Below are positions 912 to 10,256 of a stretch of 64,000 bases of DNA, one piece after another. The translations under genes were made by a program, and so were the position numbers. Under the pieces are notes generated by a model. It saw nothing but the letters and a program-made list of their open reading frames with translations, ran no database searches and was not told where the DNA came from. The stretch comes from a bacterium (GTDB lineage Bacteria > Patescibacteriota > Minisyncoccia > UBA6257 > UBA9933): contig JAUYBE010000006.1 in the NCBI GenBank assembly GCA_030693235.1, positions 71,189 through 135,188 of the forward strand, in the 5' to 3' direction. Every line of letters starts with the position of its first letter. Position 1 is the first letter of the stretch.

Positions 912-3279
912 TTTTTTAAAACAATTTTTCGGCAAATATGATTTTGAACCGCTAATTAAAAAAATTAATTCTTTAGAACCGGAACTGGAAAAATTAACAG
1001 ACGAAGAATTAAAAAACAAGAGCCTTGATTTGAAAAAAGCGGTTCAATCAAAAAGCCTCGATGATATTTTGCCCGAGGCTTTTGCGTTGGTAAGGGAAGC
1101 CGCCAAAAGGACATTGGGCCAGCGGCCTTTTGATGTTCAATTAATGGGCGGCGTTGTTTTGCATCAAGGAAAAATCGCCGAGATGAAAACCGGTGAAGGA
1201 AAAACTCTGGCAGCTGTTATGCCGGCTTATCTTAACGCTTTAACCGGCAAAGGCGTTCATATTATTACGGTTAACGATTATTTGGCGCGAAGAGACGCGA
1301 TTTGGATGGGGCAAATTTATCACGCTTTGGGATTGTCAATTGGATGTTTGACGCATGAAGCGGCGCTTTTATACGACCCAATGTATACCGAAAAAGATAA
1401 AGAACGCGATATTTTGGGAGGTTTTAAAATAGTTCACGAATTTCTTCGGCCGGTTTCAAGAAAAGAAGCTTATTTAGCCGATATTACTTACGGCACCAAT
1501 CACGAATTCGGTTTTGATTATCTTCGCGATAATTTGGTTTATGATTTAGGACAACAAGCTCAAAGGGGCAATCATTTCGCCATTATTGACGAGGTTGACA
1601 GTATTTTAATCGATGAGGCGCGCACTCCTTTGATTATCGCGGCGCCGGATACCGAATCCAGCGAGTATTATAAAATTTTCGCTAAAATTGTTGACAGACT
1701 TCGCAAAGATGATGATTATTTGGTTGATGAAAAATTAAAAACCGTCAGCATTACCGATGAGGGAATTGATAAAATAGAGAAGACGCTGAACATTAAAAAT
1801 CTTTACGGGCCGGAAAATTTTCGGATGGTTCATTATTTGGAAGAATCGCTTAAAGCTAAAACTTTATTTCATCTGGATAAAAATTATGTAGTTAAAAACG
1901 GCGAGGTGATTATTGTGGATGAATTTACCGGCCGGATGATGTATGGCCGAAGATATAGCGCCGGACTCCATCAGGCGATTGAAGCCAAAGAAAACGTCGC
2001 AATTAATCAGGAATCAAAAACTTTTGCCCAGATTACCATTCAGAATTATTTTCGGTTGTATGAAAAAATCAGCGGTATGACCGGCACGGCTCAGACATCG
2101 GCCGAGGAGTTTCATAAAGTTTACAATTTGGAAGTGATTAGCGTGCCGTCCAATAAACCGACGGTTCGCAATGATCTGTCGGATCTTATTTATAAAAATA
2201 CGGAAGCGAAATATCAAGCCGTGATTGAGGAAGTAAGAAAACGCCATTTAAGCGGCCAGCCGGTTCTCATCGGCACCGCTTCCATTACTCATAACGAAAT
2301 TTTATCGGATTTATTGAATCGAGCCGGCGTTTCGCACGAAGTTTTGAACGCCAAGAATCATGAATGCGAAGGATTGATTATCGCTCAGGCCGGAAAATTA
2401 GGAGCGGTTACCGTGGCGACTAACATGGCTGGCAGGGGAGTCGATATTGTTTTCGGCGGCAATCCTCCCGAGCCGGCAGAAGCGCGAAAAATCAGAGAAT
2501 TGGGCGGGTTGCATATTATCGGCACTGAAAGGCATGAAGCCAGAAGAATTGATAATCAGTTGCGCGGCAGAGCGGGACGGCAAGGAGATCCCGGTTCTTC
2601 GCAATTTTTTCTGTCTTTGGAAGACGATTTATTGCGGATTTTCGGCGGCGAAAGAATAAAAAGTTTAATGGAAGCGTTTAATTTGCCAGAGGATCAGCCG
2701 ATTGAATCGCGATTAGTTTCCAAAGTCGTTAATGAGGCCCAGAAAAAAGTTGAGGGAATGAATTTTGACGGCAGAAAACATTTATTGGAATACGACGATG
2801 TTTTGAACAAGCAACGGACGGCTTTTTATAAAAAAAGGCGGGAATTTTTATCTCCCTACGAGAGATCCCCCGAAGGGGGAGAACAAAAATCAAATCCGCA
2901 GGTTTTGGCGATGTTGGATATTTTATGGATGAACCATTTGGAAAATTTGGAAGCTTTGAGAGAGTCGGTTGGGATGCGGGCTTACGGCCAGCACGACCCT
3001 TTGGTGGAATATCGGCGGGAAAGTTTTTCGATGTTTAGAGAAATGATGGCGAATTTTGACAAATGGCTAAGCGAAAACGCAGAGCGTTTATCGCAACCAA
3101 CAACCAACGACCAACAATCAGCAAAAGAAAATAATTTAGGAAATGTCGTGGGTCGTGGGTCGTTAGTCGTCGGTCAGACCAAAGTCGGTCGCAATGATCC
3201 CTGCCCGTGCGGCAAAAAAAATCCACTTGCCAATAAACCAATGAAATACAAAAAATGTTGTTATCCAAAATTTGAATAA
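904..3279 (+). CDS. secA: Preprotein translocase ATPase SecA. It ends in the C-terminal zinc-binding tail CPCGKKNPLANKPMKYKKCCY and contains in-frame repeat insertions
   Basis: 791 aa. SecA DEAD-motor motifs are present: MKTGEGKTL, DEVDSILIDEARTPLII, TGTA, NMAGRGVDI. The start overlaps the hpf stop. Confidence 0.95.
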   Translation: MFNFLKQFFGKYDFEPLIKKINSLEPELEKLTDEELKNKSLDLKKAVQSKSLDDILPEAFALVREAAKRTLGQRPFDVQLMGGVVLHQGKIAEMKTGEGKTLAAVMPAYLNALTGKGVHIITVNDYLARRDAIWMGQIYHALGLSIGCLTHEAALLYDPMYTEKDKERDILGGFKIVHEFLRPVSRKEAYLADITYGTNHEFGFDYLRDNLVYDLGQQAQRGNHFAIIDEVDSILIDEARTPLIIAAPDTESSEYYKIFAKIVDRLRKDDDYLVDEKLKTVSITDEGIDKIEKTLNIKNLYGPENFRMVHYLEESLKAKTLFHLDKNYVVKNGEVIIVDEFTGRMMYGRRYSAGLHQAIEAKENVAINQESKTFAQITIQNYFRLYEKISGMTGTAQTSAEEFHKVYNLEVISVPSNKPTVRNDLSDLIYKNTEAKYQAVIEEVRKRHLSGQPVLIGTASITHNEILSDLLNRAGVSHEVLNAKNHECEGLIIAQAGKLGAVTVATNMAGRGVDIVFGGNPPEPAEARKIRELGGLHIIGTERHEARRIDNQLRGRAGRQGDPGSSQFFLSLEDDLLRIFGGERIKSLMEAFNLPEDQPIESRLVSKVVNEAQKKVEGMNFDGRKHLLEYDDVLNKQRTAFYKKRREFLSPYERSPEGGEQKSNPQVLAMLDILWMNHLENLEALRESVGMRAYGQHDPLVEYRRESFSMFREMMANFDKWLSENAERLSQPTTNDQQSAKENNLGNVVGRGSLVVGQTKVGRNDPCPCGKKNPLANKPMKYKKCCYPKFE

Positions 3280-3845
3280 AAAGATTGTAACATTTTTAGA
3301 ATTTTTTTACGAATTTTGGAGATATCATTTCGACTATTTAAGGTGAATTTTTTTCTGGTAATAAGCGCATGACAGTTTGGACAGACTAACATTAAATTAT
3401 CTATCTCATGTAGCCCTCCTTTGTTTTTGGGTACGATATGATGAGTATCAAGAGACAGTTCATAGCCACAAAATTCACATTTATCCCCATATTTTTTAAT
3501 CGCTTGCGCGCGAATCCAGGCTTTATGCTTTTTGATTTCGCCATATAAATACTTCTTTATTCCTAGTTTTCTACGGCGATATCTAACCGTCCATTGATTA
3601 GCCCTTTTAAATCCCATTTTCCTTAATTCTTTTGCAATTTCTTTATCAATCATTTTATGGAAATTTTTATTAATGAAATCGTCAACAACGGCATGGGGTA
3701 ATTTTTCAAGTGATTGATAAGCATCTTTCTTTAATTCAGGATAACCATGACGTCTAATTCTAGCCAAATGCATTGGGCAATAAATTTGCTTAGTATTCTT
3801 ATATAATGTAAACTTATTACATCCTTTTATTTTACACTCTGGCAT
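3261..3845 (-). CDS. HNH endonuclease domain protein (stand-alone, Cys-rich N-terminus)
   Basis: The C-terminal CEFCGYELSLDTHHIVPKNKGGLHEIDNLMLVCPNCH is a canonical HNH motif. The N-terminus has CxxC...CPMH. Confidence 0.8.
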   Translation of the reverse strand: MPECKIKGCNKFTLYKNTKQIYCPMHLARIRRHGYPELKKDAYQSLEKLPHAVVDDFINKNFHKMIDKEIAKELRKMGFKRANQWTVRYRRRKLGIKKYLYGEIKKHKAWIRAQAIKKYGDKCEFCGYELSLDTHHIVPKNKGGLHEIDNLMLVCPNCHALITRKKFTLNSRNDISKIRKKILKMLQSFYSNFG

Positions 3846-4682: not shown

Positions 4683-5213
4683 ATGAAATTTGGTTTTTGG
4701 AGCAAGACAAAAATCGTTCTCGTTGTTTTTATAGCGATATCTGCAACTGTTGGTTTGTTTGTTTGGCAAGAATATCCTTTTGGAGTCAAGAAATACAAAA
4801 CCATTACCCTTGGCATGCAAGCCGCGGAAGGCGCTGGCACTCCTACCGCCTGGGCTCCACCCTACCATATCGTACCGGAAGAATCCAAATTGTATGTGTA
4901 TTCGCTGGGCGATATAACTATGTGCATCGGATCAGATTGCGGTATAGGCGGATACTTTGTTGAATGTCTCGGCGGCTGGGTTTCCGGATATAAAGATATG
5001 GGCGATGTATTTGACTATGGATTGCGTGGCGTTGGAGTAAACATAAATAAGCAAAAAGTCATAACGGTCGCCGACAAGGACGCAAAAATCGTAGGCATTT
5101 ACCCTGGTGCCAGTATCAGAAATCTTCCCTATATTATGCGCAACCATCGCGATCTTGTTTCAGAAGATCAGTTTAAGCACTGTTGGGATTTAATGCCTCG
5201 GCGATGGAAATAA
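4683..5213 (+). CDS. Hypothetical secreted/membrane-anchored protein (N-terminal TM helix)
   Basis: ORF track entry. A hydrophobic segment IVLVVFIAISATVGLFV follows the N-terminus. The start overlaps the stop of the upstream gene. Confidence 0.5.
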   Translation: MKFGFWSKTKIVLVVFIAISATVGLFVWQEYPFGVKKYKTITLGMQAAEGAGTPTAWAPPYHIVPEESKLYVYSLGDITMCIGSDCGIGGYFVECLGGWVSGYKDMGDVFDYGLRGVGVNINKQKVITVADKDAKIVGIYPGASIRNLPYIMRNHRDLVSEDQFKHCWDLMPRRWK

Positions 5214-5644: not shown

Positions 5645-5667
5645 AATTTTTAAAGCAAATAAATAAT

Positions 5668-5700
5668 AAAAAATCCCCGCTATAAACGGGGATTTTTTAT
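5668..5700. terminator. Bidirectional intrinsic terminator between the MazG-like gene (+) and the 5S rRNA (-)
   Basis: Hairpin atccccg-ctataaa-cggggat flanked by A-run and T-run on both sides. Confidence 0.6.
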
Positions 5701-5741
5701 TTTCTCCAATTTTTTCGCTTTCCCGAAATTGCCGGCGTATC

Positions 5742-5858
5742 ATACTTTCCCGTTCGCCGAAGCAAATAGTATCATCTGATTCAAGCGCTTTTACTTTTCT
5801 GTTCGGAATGGGAAGAAGTAGGGCACGCTTAAGTAAAACACCGGCAAATTCGGGGAAG
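5742..5858 (-). rRNA. rrf: 5S ribosomal RNA
   Basis: The reverse complement contains cccattccgaacagaaaagtaaaagcgc...gatgatactatttgc...gggaaagta, matching the conserved 5S loop B/C and helix IV patterns. It lies just downstream of the 23S 3' end. Ends are approximate. Confidence 0.75.
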
Positions 5859-6022
5859 CGAAATTCACAATTATTATCAGAATCTTCAAATCCCAAAAGG
5901 GGAATGAGATAAATTATTTATGACTTATTAGTACTTCTTGGCTTAATCCGTTGCCGGACTTACACCTAAAGCCTATCAACGTGGTAATCTTCCACGAGTC
6001 TAAGATGTCTAATCTTGGGAGG

Positions 6023-6055
<33 letters not shown>

Positions 6056-6196
6056 CTGCCGAACATAGCTACCCGGCGCTTCACCTGGTGGCAAAGCCGG
6101 TAGACCAGAGGTTCGTTCAGCCTGATCCTCTCGTACAAAGGCCAACTTCCCTCAAACATCAACGCCTCTAGCAGATAGAGACCAACCTGTCTCACG

Positions 6197-6894
6197 CATA
6201 ATTTCAACTATTACTAATTGATTGGACTATACCACCTTCTTTTTTTATTAAGAAGATCGACGTTTTATAAAATCTTTAAAGATTTTATCTCTCCGACATA
6301 AGTCGAAGAAGTCTCTACGGGGTTAATGTACGCTTTTTTCGTTTCTTAGAATAATTTAAATCCCGAAAACTATCTACTAATTTTGCGAGTTTAATAAAAT
6401 CATTCTTATTTTTTATATTTTCTTTCATATTTAGAATTTTTATCATCAGATTAACTTGTTCTTTTTTAAGAATTACAAATGGTTTTACCATTTTCAAAAA
6501 ATCGCGCAACGCGTCGGTTCTTCCAATTATATATTCAAGAATACCGTCTTTGCGTATTCTTAAATAACCTAAACCAATTAAATTACAAATCTTTTGAAAA
6601 TTAACCCGATCTTTCTGAGATTGAAATAAAACAATATATGGCGATACTTGAAAACCATACCGATAAGTTCGATTTGGTTTTAATCGCACATAAATACTTC
6701 CATCTCCGTCTAAAAATCCTGCGATATATGATTTTTGAATTTGATTAAGCATACACAACTTCCCTCGGTATTATCCTAACATTTGACAGGTTAAAAATCA
6801 ATATTAGGATTTCACCGATATGAGTCGATTTATGCATTTTGACATCACTGTCGAAAGCCGCCGTGTTCGATGGTCATAAAGGGTTCTTTCTTTG
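6197..6894 (-). mobile_element. Group I intron in 23S rRNA, inserted in the ...GGGTTyArAmCGU|CGUGAGACAG context (near E. coli position 2593, the I-CreI-type site). It carries a LAGLIDADG ORF
   Basis: Exon sequence gggttcaaaccgt is interrupted before cgtgagacag. The 5' exon ends in U and the intron ends in G (omega-G). The span is about 698 nt with the ORF inside. Confidence 0.75.
6315..6758 (-). CDS. LAGLIDADG homing endonuclease encoded in the 23S intron
   Basis: 147 aa with the N-terminal motif IAGFLDGDGSI (LAGLIDADG). It sits wholly inside rRNA sequence. Confidence 0.85.
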   Translation of the reverse strand: MCMLNQIQKSYIAGFLDGDGSIYVRLKPNRTYRYGFQVSPYIVLFQSQKDRVNFQKICNLIGLGYLRIRKDGILEYIIGRTDALRDFLKMVKPFVILKKEQVNLMIKILNMKENIKNKNDFIKLAKLVDSFRDLNYSKKRKKRTLTP

Positions 6895-7027
6895 ACGGTT
6901 TGAACCCAGCTCGCGTATCACTTTAATTGGCGAACAGCCAAACGCTTGGGACCTTCTTCAGCCCCGCGCTGTGATGAGCCGACATCGAGGTGCCGAGCGA
7001 GATCGTCGATAAGAACTCTCGGATCTC

Positions 7028-7063
<36 letters not shown>

Positions 7064-8860
7064 ATCTCCGGCCTTTCTATAAAGGACCGTCGGGTCACTA
7101 AGTTCTGCTTTCGCACCGGCGCGGCTTGTCAGCCTTGCCGTTAAGCCGGCTTTTGCCTTTACGCGTCCAGCTCGATTTCCATCCGAGCTAAGCCGACCTT
7201 AATAAACTCCTCCGTTACTCTTTAGGAGGATTCCGCCCCAGAAAAACTGCCCGCCAGACACTGTCCCCGAACGTTTTTGCCGTTCAGGTTAGTTTTTAAA
7301 ATTTAAAAGATGGGTGTTTCATTGTCGGCTCCATCCCGACCGAGATCGAAACTTCAAAGCCTCCCCACTACGCTACGCATTTAAATTCTAAAAACAATAT
7401 CAAGCTACAGTAAAGCTCCCGGGGTCTTTTCGTCCCGCTAGAGGTATCCCGCGTCTTCACGGGAATCGCATTTTCACCGAGCTCCTCGTTGAGACAGTTC
7501 CCCAGTCGTTACACCTTTCGTGCGCTTCGGAACTTACCCGAAAAGGAATTGCGCTACCTTAGAACGATTATAGTTATCGCTGACATTGACGAGGGCTTGA
7601 GTCACTCAGCTGCGCATATTGCTACACGCAACCGGCAACCTTGACCTTCTCGCATCGGTCAGGTGTCACCCCCTATACCTCCTCTTACGAGTTTGCAGGG
7701 AGCTGTGTTTTTGTTAAACAGTCGCTAGGGATACTTTCGCTGCGACCCGAAAAATGCCTTGCGGCATCTCGGGTAGGCCTTATTGCTAACTTACGGCCGC
7801 TTTTTTGCCGAGTTCCTTAACGAGGAATCACTCGTTTCCCTGAGGCTACTCGCCTCATCCACCTGTGTCGGTTTACGGTACGGACCCAACATTTCTAATC
7901 TTAGAGGTTTTTCTCGGAGATTTGCTCGACAAACTTTATCCGGTAAAACCAGACATCGCCTCTACTCTGGGATTTGCTATTAAAAGCATCCCGACAGATT
8001 TTCTAGTCGGGAATCCTCGATCAAGGACGTCAAACCATTAAGACGCTTTATCTACTAAACCTCGTCACCCCATCGAAAAATATTGAGGGACTGGAATATT
8101 AACCAGTTGTCCATTAACTCCGGCTTTCGCCATTGCCTTAGGACCGCCTAACCCTCCGTTGATTTACATTGCGGAGGAAACCTTGGATTTGCGGGAGTCC
8201 GAGTTCTCATCGGACTTGCGGTTACTCATGCCAACATTCTCTCTTCCGTACGCTCCAGTTGCCCTCGCGGGTCAACCTTCAGCGCGTACGAAATGCTCTC
8301 CTACCACCCCCGACGTGAAGTCGGGGATTCGTGTTTTCGGTAATTTGCTTAGCCCCGGTAAATTTTCGGCGCAACCCGCCGTCGAATAGTGAGCTGTTAC
8401 GCACTCTTTAAAGGATGGCTGCCTCTAAGCCAACCTCCTATCTGTTTATGGCGGATAACTGCCTTTAACACTTAGCAAATATTTAGGGACCTTAAACGAC
8501 GATCAAGGGCTGTTTCCCTTTCGAACATGGAGCTTAGCCCCCACGTTCTAACTGCCGAGCCGTGCTTTTCCGTATTCGGAGTTTGACTGAGAAGTCGAGA
8601 TTTCTCCCTTTACTTCTTAACCAGTAGCTCTACCCCAGAAAAGTTTTTACTCGACGCCAGTCCTAAAACTGTTTCGGAGAGAACCAGCTATTACCAGGCT
8701 CGATTAGCTTTTCACTTCTTACCTCAGCTCATCCGAAGATTTTGCACAATCAACCGGTTCGGACCTCCATCCCGCTTTCGCGGGACTTCATCCTGGCCAA
8801 GGCAAGCTCGCCTGGCTTCGGGTCTTACACAAACCGTTAACCTCGCGCTCCGCGCGAGAA

Positions 8861-8998
8861 ATTTCTAATTTCTAATTTCTAATTTCTAAATAAATCCCAA
8901 TTTCCCAAATCCCAATAACCAAATATAATTGTGGTCATTTAGTGCTTGGTCATTGGTCATTATTTAGGTCAATTAGAAATTAGGTCAATTAGGAATTC
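8861..8998 (-). repeat. Palindromic repeat-built expansion, possibly an intervening sequence, inside 23S domain I/II. It is made of tctaatt / aattaga and tggtcat / tgaccaa type repeats
   Basis: About 140 nt of tandem and inverted ctaatt, cccaat and ggtcatt repeats replace a short variable helix between the conserved gggaaaccgagt and gtgtaagacccgaa blocks. The same repeat family occurs at 18287-18398 and 52770-52795. Confidence 0.6.
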
Positions 8999-9186
8999 CT
9001 TGTGCGAAGCACAAGGTGGCGCGCTTTTAACACTCGGTTTCCCTTTGCCTCCGCCCCGTAGGACTTAGACAAACGATTTATATAAACTCGTTGGCTCATT
9101 CTTCAATAGGCACACGGTCGTCCTTGCGGACTTCCGTTCCTTGTAGACATATGGTTTCAGATTCTATTTCATCGGCCTTGCCGGCC

Positions 9187-9225
<39 letters not shown>

Positions 9226-9962
9226 ATCATCAGATGTATTTAGCCTTTCCGGATAGTGCCGGATGATTCCCTCGAAGCATTCTGTCCTCGAGGTACTCAA
9301 GATCAAAGAAAATTGGTTAACTTATTTTCGCCTACGGGATTATCACCCTCTTTGATCAGTCTTTCCAGACTGTTTGGCTAACAAGTTAATTTGTAACCAA
9401 TCTTACTATAAATAGTAAATTTCTCTGTCTTACAACCCCCATCAAAATTTTCTTGCGAAAATTTTGACAGGTTTGGGCTTTTCCCTTTTCGCTCGCCGCT
9501 ACTTGGGGAATAAAATTTTTCTCTTTTCCTCCGCTTACTGAGATGTTTCACTTCAGCGGGTTAGCATCATACTACTTATAAGCATGATAGCGCGGGTTTA
9601 CCGCGCTGGGTTTTCCCATTCGGAAATCTCCGGATCATAGGTTGCTAAGCACCTCCCCGAAGCTTATCGCAGCTACGCCACGTCCTTCATCGCCATCTGA
9701 TGTCAAGGCATCCACCATACGCCCTTATTTTAAACTGTCTCAATCCCTTTCGGGATTTGAGGATTCGAATAATTGTTTTTATTATTTAATTTTCAAGGAA
9801 CTATCAAATCAACCGTTTCAGAAAAATCAAAAACCGCGTTTCGCGCGGCTTTTAAATCAACAAAAATTTTGCTGATTTTTCAGCCACTTTTTGTATTCAT
9901 TAATTTCATCATTTTCATTATTAAGTATAGATGGTGGGAAAAGTATGTCAAGAGCCAAATTT

Positions 9963-10036
9963 TGGGTGGCCAACGGGATTCGAACCCGCGATGAGAGTTC
10001 CACAAACTCTAGTGTTGCCGCTACACTATGGCCACC
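9963..10036 (-). tRNA. tRNA-His (GTG), with G-1 and encoded CCA
   Basis: Manual fold: anticodon loop ttGTGga. An extra 5' G pairs with C73. The acceptor pairing is perfect. Confidence 0.8.
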
Positions 10037-10057
10037 ATAAATAGCGAAAATTTTATG

Positions 10058-10129
10058 TGCCGCGGGGGTGAATCGAACACCCGACGCCTACTTCTTCAGA
10101 GTAGCGCTCCACCACTGAGCTACCGCGGC
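10058..10129 (-). tRNA. tRNA-Phe (GAA)
   Basis: Manual fold with perfect 7-bp acceptor gccgcgg/ccgcggc. Anticodon loop ctGAAga; T-loop ttcgatt. Confidence 0.8.
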
Positions 10130-10184
10130 ATTATTTATTTTTGATAAAATTCTATCAAAAATAAATAAAATTGCAACAATTTTG

Positions 10185-10256
10185 TGCCCCCGCGAGGAAT
10201 CGAACCTCGATCTACTCCTTAGAAGGGAGTCGTTTTATCCATTAAACTATGGGGAC
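10185..10256 (-). tRNA. tRNA-Arg (TCT)
   Basis: Manual fold: anticodon stem actcc/ggagt with loop ctTCTaa. T-arm cgagg-ttcgatt-cctcg. One A-C mismatch in the acceptor. Confidence 0.65.

Follow-up and report, generated by a model that had tools for sequence, protein, structure and literature searches.

Introduction

Group I introns of the L2593 lineage, which interrupt the 23S rRNA gene between positions 2593 and 2594 (Escherichia coli numbering), have been described in the cyanobacteria Synechococcus C1, Synechococcus C9, and Thermosynechococcus elongatus, where they are about 745 nt long and carry an open reading frame (ORF) for a single-motif LAGLIDADG protein (Haugen et al., 2007; PMC1995217). 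For bacteria of the candidate phyla radiation (CPR), the portion of the survey by Tsurumaki et al. (2024; PMC11270868) drawn on here reports that LAGLIDADG_1 ORFs concentrate at 23S positions 1917, 1931, 1952, 2593, 2604, and 2657 and that 45% of the 23S insertions match the Rfam group I model; in that portion the insertions are sorted by Rfam match and Pfam domain only, and the enzyme characterized, I-ShaI, is a different endonuclease whose insertion lies at a different 23S site. Here, we analyzed a stretch of 64,000 nucleotides of a Patescibacteria (CPR) genome (contig JAUYBE010000006.1 of assembly GCA_030693235.1; hereafter the window, whose positions are used throughout), in which the 23S rRNA gene is interrupted in helix 93 by what is very probably a mobile intron of group I that belongs to the L2593 (Cr.LSU / I-CreI) lineage, at 6894->6197 on the minus strand. 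The endonucleases I-CreI, I-MsoI, and I-CvuI are all presumably encoded in chloroplast L2593 introns.

Results and Discussion

The 23S rRNA gene lies on the minus strand, with the 5S rRNA gene downstream at 5845-5730 in the Rfam scan of the window, and a local alignment with the Rfam large-subunit (LSU) model showed an insert of about 700 nt interrupting helix 93. The minus strand reads GGGUUCAAACCGU / CAAAG...698 nt...AUUAUG / CGUGAGACAG across the two junctions; with longer context, the 5' exon side is GCUGGGUUCAAACCGU, the intron opens with CAAAGAAAGAACCC and closes with GAAAUUAUG, and the 3' exon continues as CGUGAGACAGGUUGG. The whole intron, of 30% G+C, comprises 698 nt from its first base (C, at 6894) to the terminal omega-G at 6197. 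BLASTN against E. coli rrlB, together with a direct string match, identified the final base of the 5' exon as U2593, placing the insertion between U2593 and C2594, which is the position that defines the L2593 lineage. The end of the 5' exon, GGGUUCAAACCGU (6895..6907), corresponds to E. coli 2581-2593 and includes both CCGU (6895-6898), the exon strand of P1, and GGGUUC (6902-6907), the partner of an element in the P1 loop (L1) that is discussed below, while the 3' exon starts with CGUG (6193..6196; E. coli 2594-2597), the exon strand of P10.

By alignment alone these boundaries could slide by one base, as a C opens both the intron and the 3' exon. A genome scan seeded with the intron-encoded protein recovered 41 loci from metagenome-assembled genomes of Patescibacteria/Parcubacteria (53-87% protein identity), 39 of them complete, and the insertion site was identical in all 39 complete loci. 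The introns of these related loci are 668-802 nt long, with the exception of locus L015 (1272 nt). Their first base may be C, U, or A, and the last was G in 40/40 introns, which removes the one-base ambiguity. Consequently, the coordinates assigned in the first-pass annotation (6197-6894, 698 nt) proved exact to the nucleotide in the LSU alignment and in the comparison with relatives, and its placement at the L2593 site, with a U before the 5' splice site and a G at the end of the intron, was upheld. For mature rRNA to be produced, the 23S gene of this genome requires the removal of the 698-nt intron at U2593/C2594.

The first-pass interpretation of the insert as a group I intron was supported by a covariation analysis in which each intron was reduced to a collinear 201-nt mini-core (exon ends plus core strands) and 35 of these were aligned. 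The 60 proposed pairs (P1, P10, and P2-P9, including the P3/P7 pseudoknot) were counted in the alignment itself, in 500 shuffles, and after sliding the partners by 1-3 columns. Standard pairs accounted for 96.1% of the observed combinations vs. a mean of 86.0% in the shuffles and 32-41% after sliding, pairs changed on both sides numbered 29 (shuffled mean 18.1; slid 10-14), and the covariation score reached 0.339 (shuffled mean 0.142; slid 0.039-0.081), with 0/500 shuffles matching the observed value in any of the three measures. Covariation was rich in P3, P6/P6a, P8, P9, and the inner pairs of P2, and both P3 and P4-P5 were 97.6% paired. The insert thus combines a P1 helix with a U.G pair, a conserved core with a P3/P7 pseudoknot, and an omega-G with P10, the features by which group I introns are recognized.

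Several observations weigh against this assignment. P1 is only 4 bp long and, with neither strand varying, lacks covariation support; P7 is also invariant, which suits a catalytic site yet provides no covariation evidence; in both cases the invariance fits what is expected of a splice-site helix formed on conserved rRNA and of a catalytic site, respectively. The P2 of the window contains a C.A mismatch. The Rfam model Intron_gpI (RF00028) gave no match in the window at its gathering score of 50 bits and none at E<=10 over 5650-7100, and it gave no match on the ORF-containing relative L036; among relatives lacking an ORF, it scored only 25.7 bits on L077 and gave no match (E<=0.01) on L092 and L065. 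Besides, the expression of the endonuclease is uncertain because its start codon is buried in P6a.

The failure of RF00028 on the copy in the window is attributed to the 438-nt ORF in P6 and to the P7.1/P7.2 insert, and relatives that lack the ORF bear on this point. A search of metagenomes for the motif pattern P4'-P6...P6'-J6/7-P7, limited to copies with a short loop, yielded at least 120 instances of the L2593 intron without an ORF (loci L045-L124 among these), 37 of which include both exon junctions and measure 233-609 nt; examples are found in L085 (739-971) and L121 (around 4934-5193). On L085, Intron_gpI produced a full-model match (1-253) of 51.0 bits, above the gathering score, followed by L095 (47.4 bits), L121 (42.6 bits), and L050 (40.3 bits), the matches of 40-47 bits having E of 1e-7 to 1e-10. 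The core of L121 is 68% identical to that of the window, the closest among the matches listed. The L2593 family therefore sits at the edge of RF00028 sensitivity, and the P3-P7 core check suggested in the first-pass annotation had a divided outcome: Intron_gpI does not recognize the core in the window, but the core is revealed by covariation across 35 introns and by the matches on ORF-less members of the family. The abundance of these copies also indicates that the ribozyme persists widely without the endonuclease gene. In addition, other sites in the 23S genes of related organisms are occupied by further group I introns, with Intron_gpI scores of up to 83 bits (L095 1052-1318; L077 2009-2226, 2939-3051, and 4600-4843; L121 4469-4626), consistent with the several introns per 23S gene that have been reported for CPR.

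The paired (P) and joining (J) segments of the intron, all on the minus strand, could be assigned individually. The internal guide sequence CACG-GCGG (6858..6865), invariant in the alignment in the form (A)CACG-GCGG, consists of GCGG (6858-6861; intron 34-37), which pairs with the 5' exon CCGU to form P1 with a U.G wobble at the splice site, and of CACG (6862-6865), which pairs with the 3' exon CGUG to form P10. The pairing with CCGU, which the first-pass annotation had proposed to verify, was found together with the U.G pair in 35/35 sequences, while P10 (CACG:CGUG) was 95% paired, with a UACG:CGUA compensation in L017 and L033. The P2 hairpin, UUUCGACA-GUGA-UGUCAAAA (6837..6856), has a GNRA loop; only its inner three pairs could be scored owing to a MAFFT gap in the 3' strand, all of them co-vary, and the full hairpin of 6-8 bp was checked separately. 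The 5' strand of P3, AUCGAC (6824..6829), shows compensatory changes in 4/6 pairs with the 3' strand GUCGAU (6256..6261) and is followed by J3/4 (UCAUA, 6819-6823) and by the P4-P5 domain (6765..6818), formed by P4 (UCGGUG, 6813-6818), J4/5 (AA), the P5 hairpin (6773-6810), J5/4 (AA), and P4' (UACCGA, 6765-6770).

The P6 region begins at 6750..6764 with the 5' strand GGG (6762-6764), an AA bulge, and the 5' strand of P6a, GUUGUGUAUG (6750-6759), and is closed at 6319..6332, within the last codons of the ORF, by the P6a 3' strand CGUACAUUAAC (6322-6332) and the P6 3' strand CCC (6319-6321); in this helix (92-106/113-126), 8/13 pairs are compensatory and 99.1% are paired. A single-sequence alternative for P6, GGGAAGU/ACUUCUU, was discarded after the comparison of 40 introns disclosed the true P6/P6a pairing. 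J6/7 (GUA, 6316-6318) and the P7 5' strand G[A]GACU (6310-6315) together span 6310..6318, the 5/5 pairs of P7 being invariant in the 35 sequences. A UAG stop codon, universal among the introns, overlaps J6/7 and the first pair of P7, and the invariant AGACU located directly after this stop in 40 introns eliminated other P7 5' strands suggested by the single sequence, namely GACUCAUA (intron ~70), GAUUUUAU, and GACUUAU (in P7.1). The arrangement G[A]GACU / AGUCC, invariant in 35 sequences and flanked by J6/7 and J8/7, probably forms the guanosine-binding site, and we take its bulged A and G-C pair to correspond to A263 and G264-C311 of the Tetrahymena site.

J7/3 is occupied by the hairpins P7.1 (6289-6309) and P7.2 (6267-6288), which together span 6267..6309; a two-hairpin fold was obtained for the insert of the window, as for 11/11 long inserts scored. 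Both hairpins occur in about half of the introns and are absent from the minimal forms (L026-L038), in which a conserved R-like element, AGACUAAACGUCGGUC, was recognized. The P8 hairpin CUUCUU-AAUAAAAA-AAGAAG (6236..6255) has compensatory changes in 5/6 pairs, and its overall pairing of 74% is understated since the fixed extraction of 6+6 nt disregards bulges. J8/7 (GUGGU, 6231-6235), AU, and the P7 3' strand AGUCC (6224-6228) follow at 6224..6235, AU and AGUCC making up the classic S element AUAGUCC. The P9 hairpin CAAUUA-GUAA-UAGUUG (6205..6220), also with a GNRA loop, is 99.5% paired and has 5/6 compensatory pairs. When the ORF was replaced by a tetraloop, the unconstrained minimum free energy fold of the core recovered P2, P3, P4, P5, P6/P6a, P7.1, P7.2, P8, and P9. 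Two relatives depart from this layout: L015 contains an additional insertion of about 550 nt in the P8 loop, the rest of its intron being L016-like, and L007 has no P9 hairpin, with only 8 nt between P7' and the 3' splice site.

The ORF looped out of P6a is predicted to encode a homodimeric single-motif LAGLIDADG endonuclease of the I-CreI family rather than a cellular gene product. The longest frame runs from a TTG (6758->6315, 147 aa), while an ATG at 6752 gives 145 aa (6752->6315, minus strand; UAG stop at 6315-6317). The ATG is the more likely start, because the relatives have 145 aa and the AUG is conserved and base-paired; of more than 1,400 protein relatives, nearly all are 145 aa long. 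The protein carries the motif IAGFLDGDGSI and matches Pfam LAGLIDADG_1 (E = 3e-11; 44.4 bits, cut-off 23.1), so the single-motif LAGLIDADG ORF recognized in the first-pass annotation stands. Its closest native relatives of solved structure are I-CreI (E = 1.1e-23), I-MsoI, and I-CvuI, which are outscored by engineered single-chain constructs of I-CreI and I-MsoI. The identity to I-CreI is 37% over an alignment spanning residues 8-141, in which D17, Q44, and K96 line up with I-CreI D20, Q47, and K98, presumably the catalytic positions of that enzyme. A single LAGLIDADG motif with its Asp, in a protein that would belong to the class of about 150 aa with an alpha-beta-beta-alpha-beta-beta-alpha order, is consistent with this family.

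The reconstructed intron-less site, CAAACCGTCGTGAGACAGGTTG, differs at 2/22 positions from CAAAACGTCGTGAGACAGTTTG, which we take to be the I-CreI recognition site (a presumed 22-bp target). By homology with I-CreI, the enzyme is expected to cleave 23S rDNA that lacks the intron, across the insertion site, and would thereby drive homing through double-strand-break repair. Regarding its synthesis, the start codon AUG (6750-6752) is paired within P6a, and the sole Shine-Dalgarno-like sequence, GAGGGAAG, is the P4'/P6 strand itself (6750-6764, minus strand); hence, any one RNA molecule should either be translated or fold into the ribozyme, but not both.

Two chloroplast-type L2593 introns retrieved through relatives of I-CreI, L042 (81% identical to I-CreI) and L043 (62%), share with the intron of the window both the insertion site and the endonuclease family. 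They have in common with the CPR introns the segments UAUAUCGGUGAA (J3/4-P4), GCCGAGGGAAG, CCC(C/U)GUAGAGACUU, and AUAGUCC, as well as the same P4'-P6 sequence CCGAGGGAAG; the ORF is likewise located in the P6 extension, with its UAG stop over J6/7-P7 (CCCCGUAGAGACUU), and two hairpins lie between P7 and P3', as in the window. Judged from these sequence features, there is clear homology of the intron RNA and its putative endonuclease to their counterparts in the chloroplast Cr.LSU / I-CreI system, including the stop codon in J6/7-P7. The lineages differ in their guide and exon, GCGU for ACGU in the chloroplast vs. GCGG for CCGU in CPR, an exon/guide compensation. In L042 and L043, unlike in the intron of the window, the guide is located 8-10 nt from the splice site and L1 contains no exon-binding element; they also have longer ORFs (159-167 aa) and more extensive P5 and P9 regions, and their host is a chloroplast. 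Intron_gpI matched the 3' half of the L042 intron with 29.6 bits.

The Tetrahymena LSU intron, the model on which the mechanism of group I splicing is understood, presumably has nearly identical R and S elements (AGACUAAA(C/U)GUCGGUC and AUAGUC), and the AGACUAAACGUCGGUC of the minimal forms would be almost the same as its R element. It also shares, as we take it, the bulged A in P7 beside the guanosine-binding G-C pair, the U.G pair, the omega-G, and P10, and it presumably differs in belonging to another subgroup, inserting at another site, lacking P7.1/P7.2 and an ORF, and having an elaborate P5abc. As for the cyanobacterial L2593 introns, a comparison by published description alone indicates that their short P5, short P2, and P7.1/P7.2 match the anatomy found in the window (Haugen et al., 2007; PMC1995217).

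An additional pairing between intron and exon was detected within L1. In 36/40 introns with an ORF, part of the P1 loop is complementary to the exon immediately upstream of P1; this element, of the general form (GU(U/C)U)GAA(C/U)CC, pairs with 23S 2581-2590 (exon -13 to -4). The duplex has 9-11 bp in the relatives (GUUUGAACCCG:UGGGUUCAAAC) vs. 6 bp in the window, where GAACCC (6881..6886, minus strand) represents a short form complementary to exon GGGUUC. Since 6 bp is not above chance in the window (227/500 shuffles), the status of the element there rests on homology. Among the ORF-less introns, exon and element vary together in the pairs GGGUUCAAAC / GUUUGAACCC, GGGUUCAGAC / GUCUGAAUCC, GGGUUUAGAC / GUCUAAACCC, and GGGUUAAAAC / GUUUUAACCC. 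An earlier anchoring on a unique GGGUU match dropped most sequences owing to the many matches in A/U-rich loops, and a swap test was used instead: of 73 introns with five exon variants, 43 formed a strong duplex, and in 41 of these 43 the intron's own exon variant was the unique best partner. The element is absent from the ORF-containing introns L019, L023, and L024 and from the ORF-less L121, in which the guide is 5-6 nt from the splice site, indicating that the L1 helix is dispensable.

In a structural model, the L1 duplex and P1 would form a pseudoknot that widens the recognition of the 5' exon to about 13-14 nt, and since the duplex adjoins P1, both could stack as an exon-binding helix of about 14 bp. 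We tentatively propose that most CPR L2593 introns possess an auxiliary exon-binding helix, in its 6-bp form here, that is undescribed in the literature found by a non-exhaustive search. If this proposal is correct, the helix could retain the 5' exon after its cleavage until the second splicing step, and could keep nucleotides of the peptidyl-transferase loop unfolded until the intron is removed. A somewhat unlikely alternative is that the element does not aid splicing and instead competes with or precedes the docking of P1, for example by holding G2581-C2590 unfolded or by recognizing a target for reverse splicing. The 11-bp forms, which overlap P1 by one nucleotide (exon -4), and the pseudoknot that the helix must form with P1 speak for such a role, as does the absence of the element from the four introns named above, but covariation indicates only that the pairing is selected and favors neither a helper nor a competitor. 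Five other ORF-less introns (L048, L089, L097, L106, and L113) combine the same core motifs with a different 23S exon, GGGUUAAGAACGU, in the variants CGCGAGACAGUU (L048, L097) and CGUGAGACAGUU (L089, L106, L113), which suggests hosts outside the sampled lineage; their P1 loops contain UUAAUCC-like segments that would match this exon, though not above chance.

Assuming standard group I chemistry, the pre-23S transcript would fold the P3-P9 core, and the guide GCGG would pair with the exon CCGU, setting U2593 in the U.G wobble of P1. The P7 site (G[A]GACU / AGUCC) would then bind a free guanosine, which would attack after U2593, while P1 and the putative L1-exon helix (GAACCC:GGGUUC) would retain the freed 5' exon. 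The terminal G (6197) would next occupy the G-site while P10 (CACG:CGUG) aligns the 3' exon, and exon ligation would restore helix 93. We infer excision and ligation, the autonomy of splicing, and the activity of the endonuclease from this architecture and from the homologous systems.

It appears improbable that the intron has a group I fold but cannot splice autonomously and relies on protein assistance, whether from a host factor or from the LAGLIDADG protein in the role of a maturase, even though LAGLIDADG maturases are known in other introns. The very short P1 of 4 bp, the A/U-rich core of an intron with 30% G+C, and the marginal Rfam scores across the family are compatible with such dependence, but the core helices and joining segments are all intact and conserved, the L1-exon helix could offset the short P1, and the abundance of ORF-less copies means that splicing cannot generally need the intron-encoded protein; moreover, the homologous Cr.LSU intron presumably self-splices in vitro. 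Far less credible is a decayed ribozyme or an intervening sequence (IVS) excised by RNase III-type cleavage without ligation, which would leave a fragmented 23S rRNA. Such a reading could draw on the lack of a group I core recognized by Rfam in the window, on one IVS-like long hairpin elsewhere in the same 23S gene, and on the IVS-type insertions in CPR 23S genes noted in the part of the survey used here (Tsurumaki et al., 2024; PMC11270868). Against it, the insert has a full co-varying P1-P10 architecture instead of a simple hairpin, purifying selection on pairing among 35 diverged copies speaks for a functional RNA, and the site lies within helix 93 of the peptidyl-transferase center, away from known IVS sites; an RNase III-type IVS in particular is ruled out by the multi-domain, pseudoknotted core and by its location in helix 93. 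Among other intron classes, the Rfam scan of 5650-7100 at E<=10 returned no group II family, and an archaeal bulge-helix-bulge intron was dismissed by reasoning only, given the bacterial host and the intact group I core, the motif not having been scanned for.

In sum, the mobile group I intron of the window belongs, as an ordinary and intact representative, to a class that is known and very widespread, and the first-pass statement that the phenomenon is known in CPR agrees with the literature (PMC11270868; PMC1995217). It represents an instance of the 2593 insertions cataloged in the CPR survey, in which, under a comparable Rfam search, it would be placed among the insertions without a group I match (Tsurumaki et al., 2024; PMC11270868). 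Its significance lies mainly in annotation, since the intron is assigned to the nucleotide and its inner ORF as a probable homing endonuclease. Besides, Rfam-based surveys of CPR rRNA insertions probably undercount group I introns, because an ORF in P6 and P7.1/P7.2 in J7/3 hide such introns, and through the homology to Cr.LSU / I-CreI an element very widespread in CPR is connected with a homing system that ranks among the best studied; the co-varying exon-L1 helix represents a possible structural addition.

Other Features of the Window

The same 23S gene contains a second insertion of about 180 nt (window ~8835-9020, minus strand) between E. coli positions ~644 and ~668, which forms a single long near-perfect hairpin (-84 kcal/mol, z = -9.5) with AAUUAGA-type repeats and no ORF, and which looks like an RNase III-type IVS or an expansion segment. 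About 75 nt are also present in excess of E. coli between 23S positions 270 and 409 (window 9260-9474, minus strand). The Rfam scan detected no 16S rRNA gene within the 64-kb window, and the 16S gene thus appears to be unlinked from the 23S-5S pair. Approximately 2 kb beyond the 5S gene, a free-standing ORF of 194 aa (3261-3845, minus strand) matches Pfam HNH (E = 3e-11) and, judging from this domain, may encode another mobile-element nuclease. Three tRNA genes are located directly upstream of the 23S gene (9965-10256, minus strand).

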